A DNA stretch of 64,000 nt from Spirochaetota bacterium (GTDB lineage: Bacteria; Spirochaetota; UBA4802; UB4802), in contig JBBFLA010000017.1 of NCBI GenBank assembly GCA_037481795.1, positions 1,423-65,422 on the forward strand. Reading direction: 5' to 3'. This document shows, in pieces, positions 42,305 to 48,598 of the stretch. The position numbers and the translations under genes are program-made. The notes beneath the pieces were generated by a model that made no database searches, was not told the origin of the DNA, and saw nothing but the letters and a program-made list of their open reading frames with translations. Within the stretch, counting starts at the first letter, position 1; every line of letters begins with the position of its first letter.

Positions 42305-42863
42305 AACATCCTCCTGTAAAATTTTTTAAAATCTGTAAACCGTACTCTGATGCGTACGATTCCGGGTGAAACTGTACACCCCACACAAATTTAGTTTTAT
42401 GTTTTAAAGCCATGATTTCACCATCGCTTGAATGGGCTTCAATGCTAAGGCAGTTGGGGAAATTTATTTTACTTACCACCAGTGAATGATAACGGACAGC
42501 GGTAAATCGTTGTGGTATATTGTGGAAAAGATTTCCACCATAGTGCTCAATAATATCAGTTTTACCGTGCATGATTTTTTTTGCATGAACTATCGCTCCA
42601 CCATAAACATATCCAATTGCCTGCATACCTAAGCACACGCCCAGGATGGGTATATCATCAATGTTTTTAATAACAGTAACGGTAATGCCTGAATGCTGTG
42701 GGGACGAAGGGCCAGGTGATAAAATGATACCAATGTACTTGTGGAAATTAATTGAATCAAAATTGGTATCGTTACGGTAAACATCCACCGCGTGTCCCAA
42801 TATGCGCATGTACTCAACTAAGTTATAGGTAAACGAGTCGTAGTTATCAATTATACAGAACAT
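42270..42863 (-). CDS. trpG: Anthranilate synthase component II (glutamine amidotransferase)
   Basis: IDNYDSFTYNL, SPGP, GVCLG, RYHSL, QFHPES; TGATG coupling to trpE. Confidence 0.95.
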   Translation of the reverse strand: MFCIIDNYDSFTYNLVEYMRILGHAVDVYRNDTNFDSINFHKYIGIILSPGPSSPQHSGITVTVIKNIDDIPILGVCLGMQAIGYVYGGAIVHAKKIMHGKTDIIEHYGGNLFHNIPQRFTAVRYHSLVVSKINFPNCLSIEAHSSDGEIMALKHKTKFVWGVQFHPESYASEYGLQILKNFTGGCYEYRTTYNTNN

Positions 42864-44356
42864 CACACGATCTCCTTTAATGATGTAGTAACTTTTGCAA
42901 AAGGCAGGCTTACTGAAAGCGCTTTAAGTTTATTTACTATTTCATTAAATTCATTTTCCGGGATACTATCGTACACAATGCCAGCACCCGCCTGTAAAAA
43001 TGATCCTTGCGGTGAAAAAACTGCCGTGCGAATAGTAATACAGGTATCCATTGTGTTATTGAATCCAATGTAGCCAACACACCCAGCGTAAATGCCACGC
43101 GGATGTGGTTCAAGCTGGTCAATAATCTCAATAGCACGAACTTTTGGTGCACCACTCACTGTGCCAGCGGGAAAGCTGTGGCGCAGCACATCGCTTAAAC
43201 GTATGCCATCGTTGAGTGTGGCAGTAACATTTGAAACCAAATGAATAACGTGTGAATAATCTTCCGGTTGCATGAACTGTCCTACCTGCACGCTTCCCGG
43301 CCTTGCAATGATGCTTAAATCATTGCGTGCTAAATCAACAAGCATCAGGTGCTCTGCGCGTTCCTTTTCGTTATTGAGCAAAAGTTCCTTATTTTTAATA
43401 TTTTGACTTTTTGTTTTTCCCTGGGCGATAGTTCCTGCAATTGGCCGCAATGTGGCAATATTGTCCTGTACTTTAACATGAATCTCAGGCGAGCTACCGG
43501 CAACAGTAAGATCCCCATGTTTCATATAAAACATATATGGTGATGGGTTGACCTGCCTCAGTTTAAGATAAAACCGGTAAGGGTCAACAGGTTCATTGAT
43601 GTATGCCCGCATACTTAACACGATCTGTAACGCCTCACCATCTTCAATTAAGGTTTTTGCCTGTGATACTGAATCCATGAATGTTTCCGGCAAGCTGCTG
43701 AAATTCAGATTTATTGATTCAGAGTATGCAGGAAGGTACGGTAACGAAGTTGAGGAGAGAGCAGTGATAATGTTGTCTTCGTAGGAATCAAGGCGTTGTA
43801 TTGCCTGATTGTAGGCTGATTCAATGCTGCCTTCATCAGTGTAGATACATGTGGCAATATAGTAGGTGTTATACTTATTGTCGTAGCAGATGAAGTCATC
43901 AATGTGGTGCAGTGCCATTAAAGGATGCAGTGTGTCTTCATGTATGGGCTGGCGCAGGTGCCCGGTGTAGTTAACCAGATCATACGAAAAATAACCTGAC
44001 AACCCGCCATTGTATGAACCAAAGCGGTTAAAAGACGGTGAGCAATAGCGGGCTATGTATCTGTCAATAAAATCAAATGGATCGACACAGGGGATTGTTG
44101 TTGTTTTAGAGCTATCGTTTATAATAATATATGGTGGGGTAAAGTATAGCGTTTGTACAGGATTAAAACCTAAAAATGAAAATCTGCTTTGCTTTTTGTT
44201 TTGTCTGGCGCTTTCAAAGAAGATACAGTCACCGTTATTAATAAATGATTTTAATAGAAGCAGTAAACCCGGATGGGAAATATTAAGCTGTTTATAGATA
44301 GGGATGCGGTTATATGTGCTGCTTAAATTTTTGCATTGTTGTAATGTTGGATACAT
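42863..44356 (-). CDS. trpE: Anthranilate synthase component I
   Basis: NPSPYM, GSSPE, PIAGT, EHLMLVDLARND, FPAGTVSGAPK, QAGAGIV; AAGGAG RBS. Confidence 0.97.
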   Translation of the reverse strand: MYPTLQQCKNLSSTYNRIPIYKQLNISHPGLLLLLKSFINNGDCIFFESARQNKKQSRFSFLGFNPVQTLYFTPPYIIINDSSKTTTIPCVDPFDFIDRYIARYCSPSFNRFGSYNGGLSGYFSYDLVNYTGHLRQPIHEDTLHPLMALHHIDDFICYDNKYNTYYIATCIYTDEGSIESAYNQAIQRLDSYEDNIITALSSTSLPYLPAYSESINLNFSSLPETFMDSVSQAKTLIEDGEALQIVLSMRAYINEPVDPYRFYLKLRQVNPSPYMFYMKHGDLTVAGSSPEIHVKVQDNIATLRPIAGTIAQGKTKSQNIKNKELLLNNEKERAEHLMLVDLARNDLSIIARPGSVQVGQFMQPEDYSHVIHLVSNVTATLNDGIRLSDVLRHSFPAGTVSGAPKVRAIEIIDQLEPHPRGIYAGCVGYIGFNNTMDTCITIRTAVFSPQGSFLQAGAGIVYDSIPENEFNEIVNKLKALSVSLPFAKVTTSLKEIV

Positions 44357-44379
44357 TGTCTTACTCCTTGAATTAAAAT

Positions 44380-44412
44380 AAAAAAGCCGTGGATTCTGGT
44401 TAAACCCACGGC
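44380..44412 (-). terminator. Second (distal) trp attenuator terminator
   Basis: Minus strand GCCGTGGGTT...AATCCACGGC followed by TTTTTT. Confidence 0.8.
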
Positions 44413-44425
44413 CTATAGTGTGCTT

Positions 44426-44463
44426 AAAAAAAAGCCGTGGGTTTGATGTCCACCCACGGCTTT
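44426..44463 (-). terminator. First trp attenuator terminator
   Basis: Minus strand AAAGCCGTGGGT-GGACATCAA-ACCCACGGCTTTTTTTT. Confidence 0.85.
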
Positions 44464-44492
44464 GCCATTTTCATTTATACAATAATAGCCCT

Positions 44493-44564
44493 TCAGGTGG
44501 ACATCACGTTTGTCCACCACCACCAGCTATTATTAATTGCAAATGTTAATAATGTAATCTTCAT
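44493..44564 (-). CDS. trpL: trp operon leader peptide
   Basis: MKITLLTFAINNSWWWWTNVMST: four consecutive TGG codons, followed by attenuator hairpins upstream of trpE. Confidence 0.9.
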   Translation of the reverse strand: MKITLLTFAINNSWWWWTNVMST

Positions 44565-44643
44565 TGCCGTTTTACATTGACTGCCTTTAAAATTATATCG
44601 TTTTATGACATAAAAACTAAGAATAAAAAATGTCAACAATTTT

Positions 44644-44805
44644 TTATTTTTCAATCTTTACATCATCTTTTTGATGTTTATCTATGCTCTGTTCCACAGG
44701 GCATGATTGCGATAGTCAGGTCCGTATTCCAAGCTTTGGAAATACATAAATATTCAATGCAAACCACAGTGCCATAAGAATCAAAAACCAGATAGCTTCT
44801 TTCAT
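44644..44805 (-). CDS. Candidate 53-aa membrane-anchored selenoprotein (U30-x4-C35)
   Basis: MKEAIWFLILMALWFALNIYVFPKLGIRT-TGA-LSQSCPVEQSIDKHQKDDVKIEK; TGA at 44716-44718; SECIS-like hairpin 11 nt downstream; AAGGTG RBS. Confidence 0.65.
44684..44704 (-). promoter_or_regulatory. Candidate bacterial SECIS for TGA 44716-44718
   Basis: AUGC-C-CUG[UGGAA]CAG-A-GCAU stem-loop. Confidence 0.6.
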
Positions 44806-44823
44806 ACCTGCACCTTTTACCAT

Positions 44824-45129
44824 TTAACCACAGGATGAACCTGTATCAACCATAAAACCAGCACCATACGGTGTGTCCACAAAATCTATAGTAACATTTG
44901 TACCTGCATCCATAAATCGTGCAATATCGCTGTCATAGATTACCGGTATTTCGTTTGCAATTATAACAGTATCTTTAGTATTTTCTGACTCATCCAGAGC
45001 CAGACCCAAACGGGGACCACCTCATCCAATGCCGGCAAAAACCAAACGAAGTCCTGGATGCTTAAAATCAACATCTTTAGCAGCTTCTATAATTTTTTGT
45101 TTAGCCGAATCTGTAATAGTTATGCTCAT
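44824..45129 (-). CDS. HesB/IscA-like selenoprotein (Sec36)
   Basis: MSITITDSAKQKI...GLRLVFAGIG-TGA-GGPRLGLALDES...GSSCG; TGA (45022-45024) lies at the HesB GxCG Cys position. The ORF track shows only the part after the TGA. Confidence 0.88.
44984..45004 (-). promoter_or_regulatory. Bacterial SECIS for the HesB-like gene
   Basis: UCUGGCUC[UGGAU]GAGUCAGA: 8-bp stem with one G-U pair, 17 nt after the UGA. Confidence 0.75.
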
Positions 45130-45394
45130 AATTGTACCATGTTTAATATTTAAGATACTAATAAAATACTAATAATTTTAAAAAATTTCAAGAATTTTTT
45201 ATAGTATTTACAATATGCTAAATTGACAGCATCTTTAAGCCGTTTAACTGGTTTTTCAAAACTACTGTAAATTTTATTTTTTCCCATTTTTTAAATGTAA
45301 AATTTCCTCTTTCTATATTGGTTGAAAAACTGATTAAAATTTACAATAAGTTACTACACTACCATGTATTAATATCCTGTATTATTAAAATTAA

Positions 45395-45457: not shown

Positions 45458-45781
45458 ATGTTACCAATAGAAAAAGAGGTTCTTGAGACAATTTCTGCTA
45501 TTCTTAAAAATAAATTTGGTAGCAGGGTTGTCGGGATATATGCATTTGGTTCGCGCGTTCGAGGGGATTTTAGTTTCGATTCGGATTTTGATGTTTTGAT
45601 TGTGGTAGATAATAAAACACCTGAAGTAGAACGTGAGATAATCTCAATTATTGTTGATGAAGAAATGAAATATAATCTTTCATTTTCTCCTTTGATAAAA
45701 GATGCAACATCCTTTGAATATGAAAAGCTTTATCATAGCCCTTTTTATGAAAACGTTGTCAAAGAAGGTATTAAATTATGA
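45458..45781 (+). CDS. Minimal nucleotidyltransferase (MNT) antitoxin
   Basis: FGSRVRGD...SDFDVLIV (GSx10DxD). Confidence 0.9.
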   Translation: MLPIEKEVLETISAILKNKFGSRVVGIYAFGSRVRGDFSFDSDFDVLIVVDNKTPEVEREIISIIVDEEMKYNLSFSPLIKDATSFEYEKLYHSPFYENVVKEGIKL

Positions 45782-46182
45782 CATTAAATGCAGATGAAAA
45801 AAAGACGTTGAGTGATATCCGAATGCAAAAAGCACTGGAATTTCTTGATGATGCCAAAATTAACTTAGATAATAAACGGTATAGAACCTCAGTGAATAGA
45901 AGTTACTATGCTGCTTTGAATGCCTTACGTTCATTATTAATTCTTGATGGAGCAAATCCAGAATCACATGATGGAGTTGTAACTATGATAAGTTTACGAT
46001 TTATAAAAACAGGTGTATTGCCAGTAGATATAGTTAAGAATTTTAAGATTCTCTTATCACGAAGGACAGATGTTGATTATGGCGATTTTGATAACATTAA
46101 TGAAGATGATGCAAAGGAATCGTATACAATTGCTTCATCAATTATTGAAACAGTAAATTATACACGGCAAAAGCTTGTATAA
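45778..46182 (+). CDS. HEPN domain protein (partner of MNT)
   Basis: NRSYYA, SHDGV, RRTDVDY; ATGA overlap with the MNT gene. Confidence 0.9.
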   Translation: MTLNADEKKTLSDIRMQKALEFLDDAKINLDNKRYRTSVNRSYYAALNALRSLLILDGANPESHDGVVTMISLRFIKTGVLPVDIVKNFKILLSRRTDVDYGDFDNINEDDAKESYTIASSIIETVNYTRQKLV

Positions 46183-46222: not shown

Positions 46223-48598
46223 CTAATACACTATATCCAGCACTTCCTCAAAATAGCTTACAAACCGCGCATCAATCCCTTTTTTAATGTGTTCAGGCAA
46301 CTCATCAAAGTCTTTTTTGTTTTCAGCCGGGTAAATGATTGTTTTTACCTTAGCTCGTTTTGCTGCAAGGGTCTTTTCTTTTACTCCGCCAATGGGAAGC
46401 ACTCTTCCGGTAATGGTAAGCTCACCGGTCATTGCCACACTTTTTTTTATGGGTTTGTTTTTGGCAAGTGAGTACAGCGCCGTTGCCATGGTTATACCGG
46501 CTGATGGACCATCCTTTGGTGTGGCTCCTGCAGGCACATGCAGATGTATAAAATGTTTTTCAAAGAAATCGGGGTCAATGCCAAACTGCTTAACTTTGGA
46601 GCGAATATATGAATAGGCAATCTCTGTTGATTCCTTCATAACATTGCCAAGCTGTCCTGTTTGAGTAAATCCTTTTGTTTTTGATGGAATGGCAGTTGCT
46701 TCAATATACAGCGTTGCACCACCCAGGCTTGTCCAGGCAAGTCCCATAACAACTCCTGGAATTGGTTTTTTATACAGTGATTCATCGGTAAAGCGAGGTT
46801 TGCCCAAAAACTCTTCTAAATTTTGAGTTGTGACAGTAACTGTTGATGTTGTCCCTTCAATAATTTGTCGGGTAGCTTTTCGCATAATCTTTTTTATGTT
46901 ATTTTCCAGACTTCGGACACCAGCTTCACGTGCATATCCGTCTATGATATTTTTCAGGGATGCTGTATCTATCTTAACTTCGTTTTTATACAGTCCATGC
47001 TCTTTCAGTTGTTTGGGTATCAGGTATCGCTTTGCTATCTCTAATTTTTCTTCCAGTATATAGCCTGAAAGATGCATAATCTCCATACGGTCCATCAAAG
47101 GCAGGGGTATGGTGTCTAATTGATTTGCGGTTGCAATGAAAAGGATATTGGATAAATCATAGCGTACATCTAAATAATGATCAAGGAACTGAGAATTCTG
47201 CTCAGGGTCAAGTACTTCCAGTAATGCTGATGCAGGATCGCCCTGAAAGCTTGCTCCTATTTTATCTATCTCATCAAGCATGATAACGGGGTTTGATGTT
47301 TCCACCACTTTAAGGCTCTGGATAATCTTTCCAGGCATGGCACCAATGTAGGTCCGTCGGTGCCCTTTGATTTCAGCTTCATCGCGCATGCCACCAAGTG
47401 AAAAGCGATAAAATTTTCGGTTCAATGCAGCGGCAACTGATTTACCAATGGATGTTTTACCAACACCGGGAGGCCCAACAAAACAAATTATTGAACCGGT
47501 AATACTGCCCTTCTTTTTGCCAGCACTGATAAATTCTAAAATTCTATCTTTAATATCCTGGAGCCCATAGTGATCGCGGTCCAGAATTTTTTTTGCTTTA
47601 TGAATGTCATAGTTGTCCTGCGAATAAATTCCCCATGGCAGTGAAGTAAGCCAGTCTAAATAATTTCGGCTTACACCATATTCGGCTGAATGCGGCTCAA
47701 GTACTTTTAATTTTTCTAATTCTTCGTTAAAACGCTTTAATGCTTCTTCACTTAACTTAAGTTTTTTGACACGCTCTTCAAACTTTTCAATTTCAGAAGT
47801 TTTTTCGTCTTTTTCAAGTCCAAGCTCTTTTTTGATTTCTTTAAGCTGTTCTCGTAAAAAGAATTCCTTTTGATTTTTGGCAATACGTTCTTCAATTTGC
47901 TGTGAAATCTTTTTCTGTAATTTTGATAATTCTAGTTCTTTCTTTAAAAGTAAAAGTACCTTTTCTACACGCGCTTTAACATCAAATGTTTCAAGAATTT
48001 CCTGCACCTCTGCAGGTTCGGCTGAAGTGAGGGATGCAACAAAATCAGCTAATTTACCAGGGTCTTCTAAGCTAAAGCGGTTTAAGAAAAGTTTTAACTC
48101 TTCCTGAAATAATGAGTTTGATTTTATTAGCTCTTTTACAGACGAAAGGATAGCAGCCGAGTAGGCTTTCATCTCGTCGGTTGGCTCAAACTCAGGTTCA
48201 TAGTAATGGTCCACCTTCCAGCGAATCACTGGTTGCTCAGTCATAACCTGTACCAGGGTAAAGCGCTTCAATGCATTTACCATTACCTGTATGGTGTTTT
48301 CGTCGATAGGAGCTATCTTCAATACCTTGATGGTAACTCCAACCTTATAAAGGTCTTCAGATGTAACCATGCCTTCACGCTGATTCTGGATTAACACAAC
48401 GCCGCCAATTTTATGGTCGGATTCAGCAATGGCGCGTGCGGTGGCAAGCATGGTTTCACCGGTAAGCACCAGTGGTACCATCATGCCGGGGAATATAGGC
48501 CTGTGGGATATGGGTATAATGGGTATAATTTCGGGCAAAATTTCAGACGGCAGTATTAGGTGTTTTGACTCAACAACATGATTTGAATCATCAGACAT
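46223..48598 (-). CDS. lon: ATP-dependent Lon protease
   Basis: GPPGVGKTS, GHRRTYIGAMPG, LDEIDK, PKDGPSAG catalytic Ser. Confidence 0.98.
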   Translation of the reverse strand: MSDDSNHVVESKHLILPSEILPEIIPIIPISHRPIFPGMMVPLVLTGETMLATARAIAESDHKIGGVVLIQNQREGMVTSEDLYKVGVTIKVLKIAPIDENTIQVMVNALKRFTLVQVMTEQPVIRWKVDHYYEPEFEPTDEMKAYSAAILSSVKELIKSNSLFQEELKLFLNRFSLEDPGKLADFVASLTSAEPAEVQEILETFDVKARVEKVLLLLKKELELSKLQKKISQQIEERIAKNQKEFFLREQLKEIKKELGLEKDEKTSEIEKFEERVKKLKLSEEALKRFNEELEKLKVLEPHSAEYGVSRNYLDWLTSLPWGIYSQDNYDIHKAKKILDRDHYGLQDIKDRILEFISAGKKKGSITGSIICFVGPPGVGKTSIGKSVAAALNRKFYRFSLGGMRDEAEIKGHRRTYIGAMPGKIIQSLKVVETSNPVIMLDEIDKIGASFQGDPASALLEVLDPEQNSQFLDHYLDVRYDLSNILFIATANQLDTIPLPLMDRMEIMHLSGYILEEKLEIAKRYLIPKQLKEHGLYKNEVKIDTASLKNIIDGYAREAGVRSLENNIKKIMRKATRQIIEGTTSTVTVTTQNLEEFLGKPRFTDESLYKKPIPGVVMGLAWTSLGGATLYIEATAIPSKTKGFTQTGQLGNVMKESTEIAYSYIRSKVKQFGIDPDFFEKHFIHLHVPAGATPKDGPSAGITMATALYSLAKNKPIKKSVAMTGELTITGRVLPIGGVKEKTLAAKRAKVKTIIYPAENKKDFDELPEHIKKGIDARFVSYFEEVLDIVY

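Follow-up and report, generated by a model that had tools for sequence, protein, structure and literature searches.

Two adjacent, co-directional genes in the genome of an uncultured spirochaete (Spirochaetota) almost certainly both encode selenoproteins, as judged from their sequences: a soluble HesB/IscA-like protein (gene 1) followed by a single-pass membrane peptide (gene 2). The two proteins probably constitute a functional pair, and the explanation that best accounts for the whole, which we hold tentatively and at a little less than an even chance, is that they form a membrane-docked ligand or relay pair. Positions are those of the window, i.e. the whole 64,000-nucleotide stretch of DNA that was analysed; the features concerned are the following.

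44824..45129, minus strand: gene 1, HesB/IscA-like selenoprotein, 101 residues by translation, Sec at residue 36, then a TAA stop.
45022..45024, minus strand: in-frame TGA, Sec codon of gene 1.
44984..45004, minus strand: SECIS hairpin of gene 1 from RNA folding, 8-bp stem, loop UGGAU at 44996-44992.
44806..44823, minus strand: spacer of 18 nt between the two genes, with a Shine-Dalgarno-like AAAGGTG.
44644..44805, minus strand: gene 2, single-pass membrane selenoprotein, 53 residues, then a TAA stop (44646-44644).
44716..44718, minus strand: in-frame TGA, Sec codon of gene 2.
44680..44707, minus strand: SECIS hairpin of gene 2, stem beginning 11-12 nt past the UGA and (U)GGA(A) apex at 44695-44693.

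The initial annotation had noticed in both genes an in-frame TGA and a downstream hairpin with a UGGA apex, and translation and folding bear this out. That both are genuine selenoprotein genes is further sustained by the Sec machinery, the conservation of the TGA codons, the Cys homologues and the conserved hairpins. The genome possesses a tRNA-Sec and a SelB (311.6 bits for a cut-off of 242), and also encodes a Sec-SelD and a Sec-peroxiredoxin, the latter found by a family search. For gene 1, the TGA is retained in 63 of 66 genome matches. For gene 2, searches of 101 related genomes (E<=0.001) gave 61 places, 58 with the in-frame TGA and three without it, a conservation that we judge to exceed chance. 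Natural Cys forms of gene 2 exist too, with TGC or TGT at the place of TGA in genomes G039 and G018; P0002-P0013 and 54 of 80 metagenome loci are further examples.

Public gene calls list the gene 2 products at 29 residues. This is what would be seen if the UGA were a true stop, gene 2 encoding a 29-residue peptide and the hairpin serving transcript stability or the control of the trp leader. We regard this as very improbable, since the reading frame past the UGA is conserved and has a Cys that never varies at +5, natural homologues carry TGC or TGT instead of TGA, the hairpin after the Sec codon is also present in loci that are not close to a trp operon, and its geometry fits the bacterial SECIS consensus. 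As the public calls stop at residue 29, selenoproteome counts miss this family.

In the part of PMC13188914 that we consulted, the bacterial SECIS is given an apical loop of 3-9 nt having a G as one of its two leading nucleotides and then G or U, an upper stem 4-16 bp long, a distance of 16-37 nt from UGA to loop and a minimum free energy of -7.5 kcal/mol or lower. The loops U-G-G-A-U of gene 1 and (U)-G-G-A-(A) of gene 2 conform to this rule. The loop of gene 1, on the 8-bp stem, lies 25 nt downstream of its UGA, and that of gene 2, on 7-8 pairs with one mismatch, lies 19-20 nt downstream, both within the consensus. The folding energies, -15.3 kcal/mol for gene 1 and -12.2 to -13.7 kcal/mol for gene 2, are those of the whole folded stretch of 58-60 nt and not of the hairpin alone. 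A scan of 44300-45300 against Rfam (E<=10) returned no SECIS family.

The hairpin of gene 1, encoded by the conserved residues L-A-L-D-E-S, is not unusual by itself: 41 of 200 shuffled sequences fold as well (z -0.79). We consider it real because 24 of 25 homologues preserve the stem, with one-sided changes only, and not from the shuffle score. The hairpin of gene 2 is more distinctive against shuffles (z -2.2, 7 of 200 folding as well) and displays compensatory changes, GC (8 sequences) versus CG (10) at alignment columns 22/28, and AU, GC, CG and GU at columns 21/30. Paired cells amount to 177 of 208, compared with 80-123 in slid registers; these pairs were counted by a script in both loop registers, RNAalifold giving no consensus because two loop registers coexist. 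The natural Cys forms reveal what becomes of a SECIS once Sec is replaced. In the Cys form of locus L020, synonymous changes have broken up the stem of gene 1, and likewise in the decayed Cys copy of genome G003. The hairpin of gene 2 persists in the Cys forms of loci L020 and L035.

Throughout the spirochaete order concerned, both genes keep the UGGA loop, which had been proposed to be a lineage-specific recognition motif of SelB. This proposal does not hold, because SelD and the peroxiredoxin of the same genome have SECIS loops devoid of it (GGC and AGUU respectively); both UGGA loops come under the general bacterial rule, with G and then G or U where a small apical loop begins. Besides, the UGGA loops are built from the Leu/Val-Asp/Glu codons (CUG-GAU, GUG-GAA) of conserved residues, and among 22 unique Sec mRNAs of the wider peptide family just five contain UGGA.

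Gene 1 matches PF01521 of Pfam over residues 1-95 (35.5 bits for a cut-off of 26.3) and is the sole match to this family in its genome. Its Sec lies in the context GIG-U-GGP, at the place where the solved IscA-type chains 1nwb and 2apn have, in the alignment, the conserved Cys of their GGC(S)G motif; its lone C-terminal Cys is Cys100. In an alignment of 22 sequences (A2), U36 and C100 are invariant, while 21 of them are devoid of a second C-terminal Cys. A-type carriers canonically have three ligand cysteines, one central and two in a C-x-C near the C-terminus. Gene 1 thus shares with IscA, SufA and ErpA the fold and the position of the first ligand residue, but the ligand set is cut to Sec plus one Cys, and its scores fall far under the equivalog cut-offs of these three proteins in NCBIfam. 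Because gene 1 is the only A-type carrier homologue of the genome, it may perform the housekeeping carrier job.

The closest known kind is that of the HesB-like selenoproteins (TIGR01911, NF038090), which likewise have Sec for the first conserved Cys of the PF01521 fold. With U scored as C, gene 1 reaches 49.5 bits with NF038090 (IscA_HesB_Se, cut-off 85) and 43.5 bits with TIGR01911 (cut-off 66.35). As both cut-offs are missed, we file gene 1 as a divergent subfamily of this kind, not as a member of either model. According to the table consulted in PMC13188914, the motif of HesB-like selenoproteins is UxGP, which U-G-G-P fits, and in both cases the SECIS lies within the ORF. A protein of this family was verified by 75Se labelling in Methanococcus maripaludis (PMC11097638; table of PMC13188914), and the function of the family is termed “not clear” in the portion of PMC11097638 consulted. 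Gene 1 differs from this family also by having one Cys only at its end, as the last residue or adjacent to it, and is trailed, in this order, by a second selenoprotein gene; the portions of the selenoprotein literature examined describe no partner for HesB-like selenoproteins. A word-indexed protein search with the Cys form of the HesB protein found three relatives only.

Gene 2 displays an N-terminal transmembrane helix, then LP-K-x-G-x-x-T-U-x4-C, then a charged tail; P23, G26, T29, U30 and C35 are invariant in 28 sequences (alignment A1). The start implied by the initial annotation, ATG 44823, is probably wrong, being absent from the close relative L009. The best start is ATG 44805, for an ATG stands at this place, 29 codons before Sec, in 26 of 30 homologous loci; the codon is GTG or TTG in L024 and L019, and is missing in L021 and L023.

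No match to gene 2 was found in Pfam or NCBIfam at E<=1, and 26 of its Cys-form relatives gave no match in these databases naming a related family. In the table of 119 families of PMC13188914, as far as this source was available, no row fits T-U-x4-C after a single transmembrane helix. The family of gene 2 therefore appears uncatalogued, the Olavius-symbiont proteins OS_HP1 and OS_HP2, whose sequences are given in figures only, being outside the comparison. The literature on HesB-like selenoproteins, on selenoproteins with YgaP or, judged by titles and abstracts, on small bacterial membrane proteins with selenocysteine yielded no such peptide. The peptide would thus be an apparent selenoprotein family missing from Pfam, NCBIfam and the consulted table of this 2026 inventory. 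TsoA (LULAXC motif, NF045695), whose short motif is the most alike among the listed families, also has Sec followed by Cys a few residues on, a likeness that concerns the printed motif only. The motif of TsoA in the table is U-x3-C as opposed to U-x4-C in gene 2, which does not match NF045695 at E<=1.

Conservation of the neighbourhood was the check put forward for the pair, and the pair recurs: among 36 genomes of one spirochaete order, 27 have HesB directly upstream of gene 2 on the same strand. The spacer measures 6-24 nt in 22 of 25 homologous gene pairs, across six families. The two genes are usually translationally coupled and probably co-translated. The view of the initial annotation, a soluble Fe-S-carrier-like protein accompanied by a membrane-tethered Sec/Cys peptide, is supported, as a conserved, tightly spaced module, by the PF01521 match, the transmembrane motif and these short spacers. 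A sample of 401 genomes of the phylum gave 56 with gene 2 and 65 with the HesB subfamily (E<=1e-24); all belong to six families, the same for both genes, within one order, and neither gene occurs in the six genomes of a seventh family. Where the two genes are unlinked, a Sec-HesB still exists elsewhere in the genome in all five cases tested, which speaks for the pair. Among the 80 genomes of this order, 54 have both genes, two gene 2 only, 11 HesB only and 13 neither; since related genomes are not independent, this table overstates the support for co-occurrence.

Both could nevertheless be real selenoproteins that act independently, the peptide being a general membrane thiol or selenol element for stress or sulfur handling that shares a promoter with HesB, e.g. 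for selenium- or stress-dependent co-expression. The genes are unlinked in nine of the 36 genomes, eight of these belonging to one family; no gene 2 was found in 11 of the 65 genomes with the HesB subfamily, and the two genomes with the peptide only go in the same direction. Of 80 metagenome loci of the wider peptide family, just two have HesB as a neighbour, the usual neighbours elsewhere being genes for zf-HC2 anti-sigma, YgaP-like, rhodanese/TauE and cytochrome-bd-like proteins. From these two observations, the unlinked genomes and the two loci of 80, it follows that the peptide needs no neighbouring HesB. Independent action nevertheless seems rather unlikely: it does not account well for a 6-24 nt spacing kept across six families, for identical distributions at the family level with co-occurrence in 54 of the 56 genomes that have gene 2, for the joint change to Cys in G039 and the joint decay in G003, nor for the loss by the HesB subfamily of the third A-type ligand Cys, which fits a partner supplying ligands.

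The wider peptide family comprises 1173 cluster representatives at 50% identity in a full HMMER scan, compared with which the 45 relatives of a word-indexed protein search are a large undercount. Its members are mostly found beside anti-sigma, YgaP-like, rhodanese/TauE or thioredoxin genes, and not beside HesB. In 29 metagenome loci, a zf-HC2 anti-sigma gene is directly upstream in eight, a YgaP-like transmembrane protein is encoded within two ORFs in nine, and in three a metallo-beta-lactamase+rhodanese gene stands upstream and TauE downstream. Two natural fusions join the peptide to a thioredoxin domain (TIGR01068, over cut-off). Reciprocally, the peptide was found at none of 13 loci of Cys-type HesB relatives, mostly from Desulfomicrobium; these loci are all of the Cys type because the search pattern held a Cys codon. 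A lead from the ESM Atlas, below 0.9 and set aside, is a cluster of hypothetical proteins in which Planctomycetota is the commonest taxon. The membrane thiol proteins of sulfur trafficking, YgaP-like (PF11127), rhodanese and TauE, share with the peptide family a neighbourhood and a conserved Cys/Sec pair by a membrane helix; the likeness is of context only, as no sequence relationship was detected. These neighbourhoods, with Cys and Sec forms both common in metagenomes and in thiol- or sulfur-stress contexts, point to a putative general small membrane redox element.

How the pair might work can be outlined as follows. The peptide is predicted to be N-out/C-in, from the positive-inside rule only, read by eye on K24 and R28 after the helix, and this topology would place its Sec/Cys pair at the cytoplasmic face of the membrane. 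The soluble HesB-like protein would dock there, and the two proteins, offering two Sec and two Cys ligands together, would share a labile cargo or pass it from one to the other. This cargo could be a [2Fe-2S] cluster or iron, or else sulfane sulfur or selenium held as a selenenyl-sulfide or a persulfide. We consider such a cargo-sharing or relay mechanism possible but doubtful in this precise form. The homodimer of HesB alone could supply four ligands, as in A-type carriers, so that a partner is not required for the ligand count. A complex prediction for the two Cys-form proteins of G039, with HesB entered as one sequence and the peptide as a 15-row alignment, scored 0.00 in two runs with the controls not folded, and speaks neither for nor against the pair. 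HesB-like selenoproteins occur in many lineages without such a partner.

A bolder reading would make of the T-[Sec/Cys]-x4-Cys membrane peptide a widespread and as yet unnamed redox or sulfur-relay module on which, in this order, the only A-type carrier of the cell has come to depend as its obligate partner at the membrane, the mixed 2Se+2S site holding or handing over an Fe-S cluster or a persulfide/perselenide at the cytoplasmic face. We find it unlikely as stated; if true, it would be the first functional handle on HesB-like selenoproteins. The conserved, co-evolving partner in any case offers a concrete and testable hypothesis for this family.

Alternatively the pair could serve the metabolism of selenium itself, through capture, storage or delivery at the membrane for SelD, and not that of Fe-S or sulfur. 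The detected selenoproteome is small, being limited to SelD, one peroxiredoxin and the pair; the genome yielded neither formate dehydrogenase nor FlpD, NiFe hydrogenase or thioredoxin in a Sec form. A de novo genome scan, combining a coding score and a hairpin filter, produced no convincing candidate other than SelD and the two genes. In addition, G003, G014, G020 and G032, members of the order without a SelB over the cut-off, have no intact pair; in G003 gene 2 is absent and what is left of gene 1 is a decayed Cys copy. We nonetheless regard a role in selenium metabolism as improbable. The de novo scan is heuristic, has an output dominated by in-frame neighbours and antisense frames, and missed the Sec-peroxiredoxin, so that it is not exhaustive. 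Loss along with the Sec trait is expected of any obligate selenoprotein. Conversely, G039 (84% complete), where no SelB was found, retains both genes, still adjacent and both with Cys, and G009, G033 and G042 have SelB and neither gene.

Returning to the membrane-docked pair, its organization recalls the selenoprotein operons reviewed in the consulted part of PMC13188914, i.e. grdA-grdB, prdB-prdC, frhA-frhD-hdrA, SAO and Tso: the Sec genes are likewise co-directional, each with its own SECIS, and are assumed to act in one pathway. The present case differs from these operons by the very small size of both genes and by a peptide of an unlisted family; a HesB-like protein is in none of those described there.

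Two further features may bear on the transcription of the locus.

45163..45191, minus strand: promoter-like site upstream of gene 1, TTGAAA, 17 nt, TATTTT, by consensus match only.
44564..44493, minus strand: trp leader ORF, 23 codons, with four consecutive Trp codons.

The promoter-like site matches at 9 of 12 positions, and such sites are not above the shuffle expectation in this region. Past gene 2, a TTGACA (44636-44631) begins 7 nt after the TAA, for which the consensus scan found no acceptable -10 box, and no terminator-like site was found between gene 2 and the trp leader; the 7-nt gap and the absence of a terminator, both noted initially, are correct on the sequence. The trp leader is followed by a terminator-like hairpin, then by trpE. 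The Rfam hits over the leader region are below threshold (trpB motif, 34.4 for 59 bits; Phe_leader, 25.7 for 55 bits).

Metatranscriptome contigs of a relative about 90% identical cover both genes and continue through the trp leader into the beginning of trpE, a continuity which does not prove a single transcript. In each of the four RNA runs, which may be of one campaign, the RNA contigs end near 45129, with adapter sequence coming next in run X17; this is no more than a faint indication that a transcript ends at the start codon of gene 1. Finally, genus g1 alone has the pair next to the trp operon, trpE being downstream in seven of its eight loci (L008-L013 and L015) and nowhere else; this adjacency is not a functional link.

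The two adjacent genes, lying on the reverse strand, each contain an in-frame TGA and a downstream hairpin:

45129 (ATG) to 44826-44824 (TAA), reverse strand: gene 1, HesB/IscA-like, 101 residues if the TGA is read through
45024-45022, reverse strand: in-frame TGA (Sec codon) of gene 1, from the reading frame
45004-44984, reverse strand: gene 1 hairpin, 8-bp stem and loop UGGAU, from folding
18 bases, reverse strand: spacer between the genes, with a Shine-Dalgarno-like AAAGGTG, from the sequence
44805 (ATG) to 44646-44644 (TAA), reverse strand: gene 2, small membrane peptide, 53 residues if the TGA is read through
44718-44716, reverse strand: in-frame TGA (Sec codon) of gene 2, from the reading frame
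44707-44680, reverse strand: gene 2 hairpin, 7-8-bp stem with one mismatch, apex (U)GGA(A), from folding

The read-through product of gene 1 carries the motif GIG-U-GGP and ends in ...GSSCG. It matches PF01521 (Fe-S_biosyn) above the gathering score, being the sole match in the genome (G000), and its top NCBIfam matches are the HesB selenoprotein models NF038090 and TIGR01911, both under their cut-off. The profile built from 22 orthologues aligns to two solved IscA-type chains, the Sec column falling on their ligand Cys, and U-GGP agrees with the UxGP motif listed for HesB-like selenoproteins in the table of a 2026 inventory (PMC13188914). Gene 1 is thus, by its sequence, a member of this known kind, whose function is called unclear in a passage of PMC11097638. 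Across the 22 orthologues only U36 and a single terminal or penultimate Cys are invariant, so that the usual third ligand Cys is missing from this subfamily. Cys-type HesB-like proteins of Desulfomicrobium and Desulfovibrionaceae MAGs (L039-L041, L043, L045) share the core GCGGPRLGLALDE with gene 1 and end in a Cys-rich tail (...GGGCSSCGCGGSCG), which may supply extra ligands in cis; no peptide gene was found near these five.

The gene 2 product consists of a hydrophobic helix (about residues 4-22), the segment P-K-L-G-I-R-T-U-L-S-Q-S-C-P and a tail rich in Lys, Asp and Glu. The initial annotation implied a start at ATG 44823, which is missing in a close relative; of 30 homologous loci, 26 have an ATG exactly 29 codons 5' of the Sec codon and two more have GTG or TTG there. 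Searched in all six frames, 101 related genomes yielded 61 matches at E<=0.001, 58 with the in-frame TGA and three without. In 28 aligned non-identical homologues P23, G26, T29, U30 and C35 are invariant, W14 and N18 nearly so; Cys replaces Sec in two genomes, G039 and G018. Beyond these genomes, 5.8 billion clusters were searched by word index, which brought up 45 relatives; each of them is either unnamed or "hypothetical", and many stop at the UGA with a length of exactly 29 aa. When 1.84 billion representatives were scanned in full with HMMER, 1173 matched at E<=0.001 (54 at E<=1e-10); the 35 fetched are mostly of 45-110 aa with ...LNRW.LP..G..T-C-MSG.C..., and a few have the TGA rendered as W. 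Neither gene 2 nor any of 26 stand-alone Cys forms has a meaningful match in Pfam or NCBIfam, the table of 119 families in PMC13188914 contains no row fitting gene 2, and no description of such a peptide turned up in the papers searched. On these sequence grounds gene 2 encodes a real selenoprotein, whose family appears to be uncatalogued in these libraries and this table.

The organism can decode Sec. Its assembly (3.3 Mb, 146 contigs, 36.7% G+C, 93% complete) holds one tRNA-Sec and a SelB above the curated cut-off, in a cluster (G000:C16:22855-27285) where a Sec selD (one in-frame TGA, GSG-U-AAK) is followed 180 nt downstream by the tRNA-Sec and then by selB. A 2-Cys peroxiredoxin (G000:C8:17024-17819) bears Sec at the peroxidatic position, FTFV-U-ATE. 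Formate dehydrogenase, FlpD, NiFe hydrogenase large subunit and thioredoxin were looked for in this assembly and none came up in a Sec form, and a heuristic scan for more selenoproteins gave nothing further; the scan missed the peroxiredoxin and is therefore not exhaustive. Three matches to FlaA, the spirochaetal flagellar sheath protein, against none in 14 control genomes, indicate a spirochaete; FlaA is also present at a related locus.

Both hairpins agree with the bacterial SECIS consensus as stated in PMC13188914 (loop of 3-9 nt starting with G then G/U, 16-37 nt from the UGA, MFE <= -7.5 kcal/mol). Compared with shuffled sequences the gene 2 hairpin stands out (z -2.2) whereas that of gene 1 does not (z -0.79), and the case for the latter therefore rests on conservation. 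Its stem CUGGCUC/GAGUCAG and loop UGGAU are retained in 24 of 25 orthologues, with one-sided changes only, and this stretch encodes the invariant residues L-A-L-D-E-S. In a natural Cys form of gene 1 (L020) these residues are retained, their synonymous codons differ and the hairpin is lost; it is lost too in the decayed Cys copy of genome G003. This loss, read from sequence, is what a functional SECIS would be expected to show. The gene 2 hairpin starts at the conserved Cys codon, 12 nt 3' of the UGA, and occurs in two loop registers. Its stem covaries: one position alternates between GC (8) and CG (10), a second takes AU, GC, CG or GU, and 177 of 208 stem cells are paired, against 80-123 with the partner slid. 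That these are two real selenoprotein genes is, to our mind, almost certain.

The matching UGGA loops noticed at the outset hold throughout the spirochaete order to which the pair belongs (26/26 gene 2 sequences, 24/25 Sec gene 1 sequences). Their reading as a lineage-specific SelB recognition motif had to be abandoned: in the same genome the loop is GGC for SelD (6-bp stem) and AGUU for Prx (7-bp stem), the wider peptide family has UGGA in only 5 of 22 unique Sec mRNAs (the rest having GUC, GGA, AGUUC or CGUGC), and in both genes UGGA arises where a Leu/Val codon meets an Asp/Glu codon.

The neighbourhood, whose conservation the initial annotation had proposed to test, is conserved: HesB is the immediate upstream neighbour of the peptide gene, in the same orientation, in 25 of the first 30 loci, and over all genomes in 27 of 36. 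The spacer measures 6-24 nt in 22 of the 25 and 180 nt in one, with an overlap or mis-chosen start in two. Of 401 genomes sampled evenly across the phylum, 56 match the peptide profile and 65 match that of HesB (E<=1e-24; one further weak match lies outside), both profiles being confined to the same six families of the order; neither matched in six genomes of a seventh family or in 321 genomes of other orders. Among the 80 genomes of the order, 54 have both genes, two the peptide only, 11 HesB only and 13 neither, counts that are descriptive as relatives are not independent. The two genes change state jointly. In G039 (84% complete), where no SelB was found, both carry Cys and remain neighbours. 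G003, of the same genus, has in gene 1 (L038, on G003:C39) TGT for TGA, a SECIS loop UAGAU and a 3' part no longer aligning, with no gene 2 and no SelB above the cut-off. Three genomes (G014, G020, G032) lack both genes and SelB, and three others (G009, G033, G042) lack both genes although SelB is present. The main rival explanation is that the two proteins act independently under a shared promoter; it draws some support from nine genomes whose genes are not adjacent, eight of them of one family (f4) where the genes are unlinked and one of another family. A Sec-HesB was found elsewhere in the genome for all five such genomes tested. We consider it rather probable that the genes form a functional pair. 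HesB-like selenoproteins, selenoprotein operons and selenoprotein genes whose SECIS lies inside the ORF were all known before; the novelty lies in the peptide family, which the libraries and inventory checked do not contain, and in the conserved way it is coupled to a HesB-like selenoprotein.

A further point for independent action is that the wider peptide family often occurs without HesB nearby. In 80 metagenome loci (Cys in 54, Sec in 25-26, one Sec call being doubtful) HesB is next to the peptide in only two. The 29 loci with enough flank have a short zf-HC2 anti-sigma gene directly upstream (8/29), a YgaP-like TM-domain protein within two ORFs (9/29), a cytochrome-bd-subunit-I-like gene downstream (5/29), DUF302 upstream (3/29), or a metallo-beta-lactamase+rhodanese gene upstream with a TauE exporter downstream (3/29). 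Two putative single genes, P0142 (171 aa) and P0192 (208 aa), fuse the TM helix and T-C-MSG-x-C to a full thioredoxin domain (TIGR01068: 121.8 and 105.7 bits, cut-off 96.8). These neighbourhoods are of thiol, redox and sulfur-trafficking type, so that T-[U/C]-x4-C may be read as a redox-active or ligand-donating pair at the membrane surface. As a side observation, in L092, L100, L113, L117, L132, L146, L155 and L160 a Cys peptide directly follows the short zf-HC2 (ZAS-type) anti-sigma gene, often with the YgaP-like TM protein and the cytochrome-bd-subunit-I-like gene next, forming a recurrent operon.

The positive charges directly after the helix suggest an N-out/C-in topology, which would place Sec30/Cys35 at the cytoplasmic face where the soluble, leaderless-looking HesB-like protein could meet them. 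The HesB ligands being here only Sec36 and Cys100, the two partners would gather two Sec and two Cys, enough for a [2Fe-2S] cluster or a metal, or for S/Se atom transfer by selenenyl-sulfide exchange. This holding or relay of a cargo at the membrane is our leading proposal for a mechanism, put forward tentatively and at less than even odds.

The surroundings of the pair comprise:

46223-48598, reverse strand: lon, upstream of gene 1
45458-46182, forward strand: nucleotidyltransferase (PF01909) and HEPN (PF05168) pair, inserted between lon and gene 1
44564..44493, reverse strand: trp leader ORF, 23 codons with four consecutive Trp
44384-44462, reverse strand: trp leader hairpin region, terminator-like hairpin directly before trpE
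42863-44356, reverse strand: trpE, downstream of the leader hairpin

The TTGACA starts exactly 7 nt past the gene 2 stop, and no terminator-like site lies between gene 2 and the trp leader, both as first described. The leader and the terminator-like hairpin before trpE make up a classic trp attenuator; Rfam gave sub-threshold matches only in the leader region (trpB motif 34.4 vs 59 bits, Phe_leader 25.7 vs 55). Visual inspection shows another G+C-rich hairpin with a T run ahead of the terminator-like one. Metatranscriptome contigs of a ~90% identical relative, from four runs (X15-X18) that may be one campaign, extend in one piece from 45129 to beyond 44300, bridging gene 1, gene 2, the trp leader and the start of trpE. 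They are compatible with co-transcription and read-through; contigs cannot prove a single transcript. The link to trp is a local one, since loci with trpE after the pair are confined to this genus, where they make up 7 of 8. In all four runs the contigs end at about 45129, where the start codon of gene 1 begins, and in one an Illumina adapter directly follows, so this may be the 5' end of a leaderless or nearly leaderless mRNA.

Upstream, many genomes have a co-directional lon directly before the pair. The PF01909/PF05168 genes, of MntA/HepT toxin-antitoxin type, occupy this site in some species of the genus, lon being directly upstream in others. In one family (L025:678-938, L030:776-1048, L033:845-1108) the pair is immediately preceded, on its own strand, by genes for an ArsR/SmtB-type regulator (PF01022) and a DedA/VTT membrane protein, which hints at a metal- or metalloid-responsive control. 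Finally, in several families of the order an unannotated lipoprotein of ~190 aa (lipobox ...C-GGGSSSDS...; no Pfam match) is encoded 3' of the pair and possibly joins the module there as a third component:

L020:1725-2315, L021:1819-2382, L022:1755-2327, L035:811-1401, L036:1748-2308 and L028:2329-2865, strand of the pair: ~190-aa lipoprotein gene
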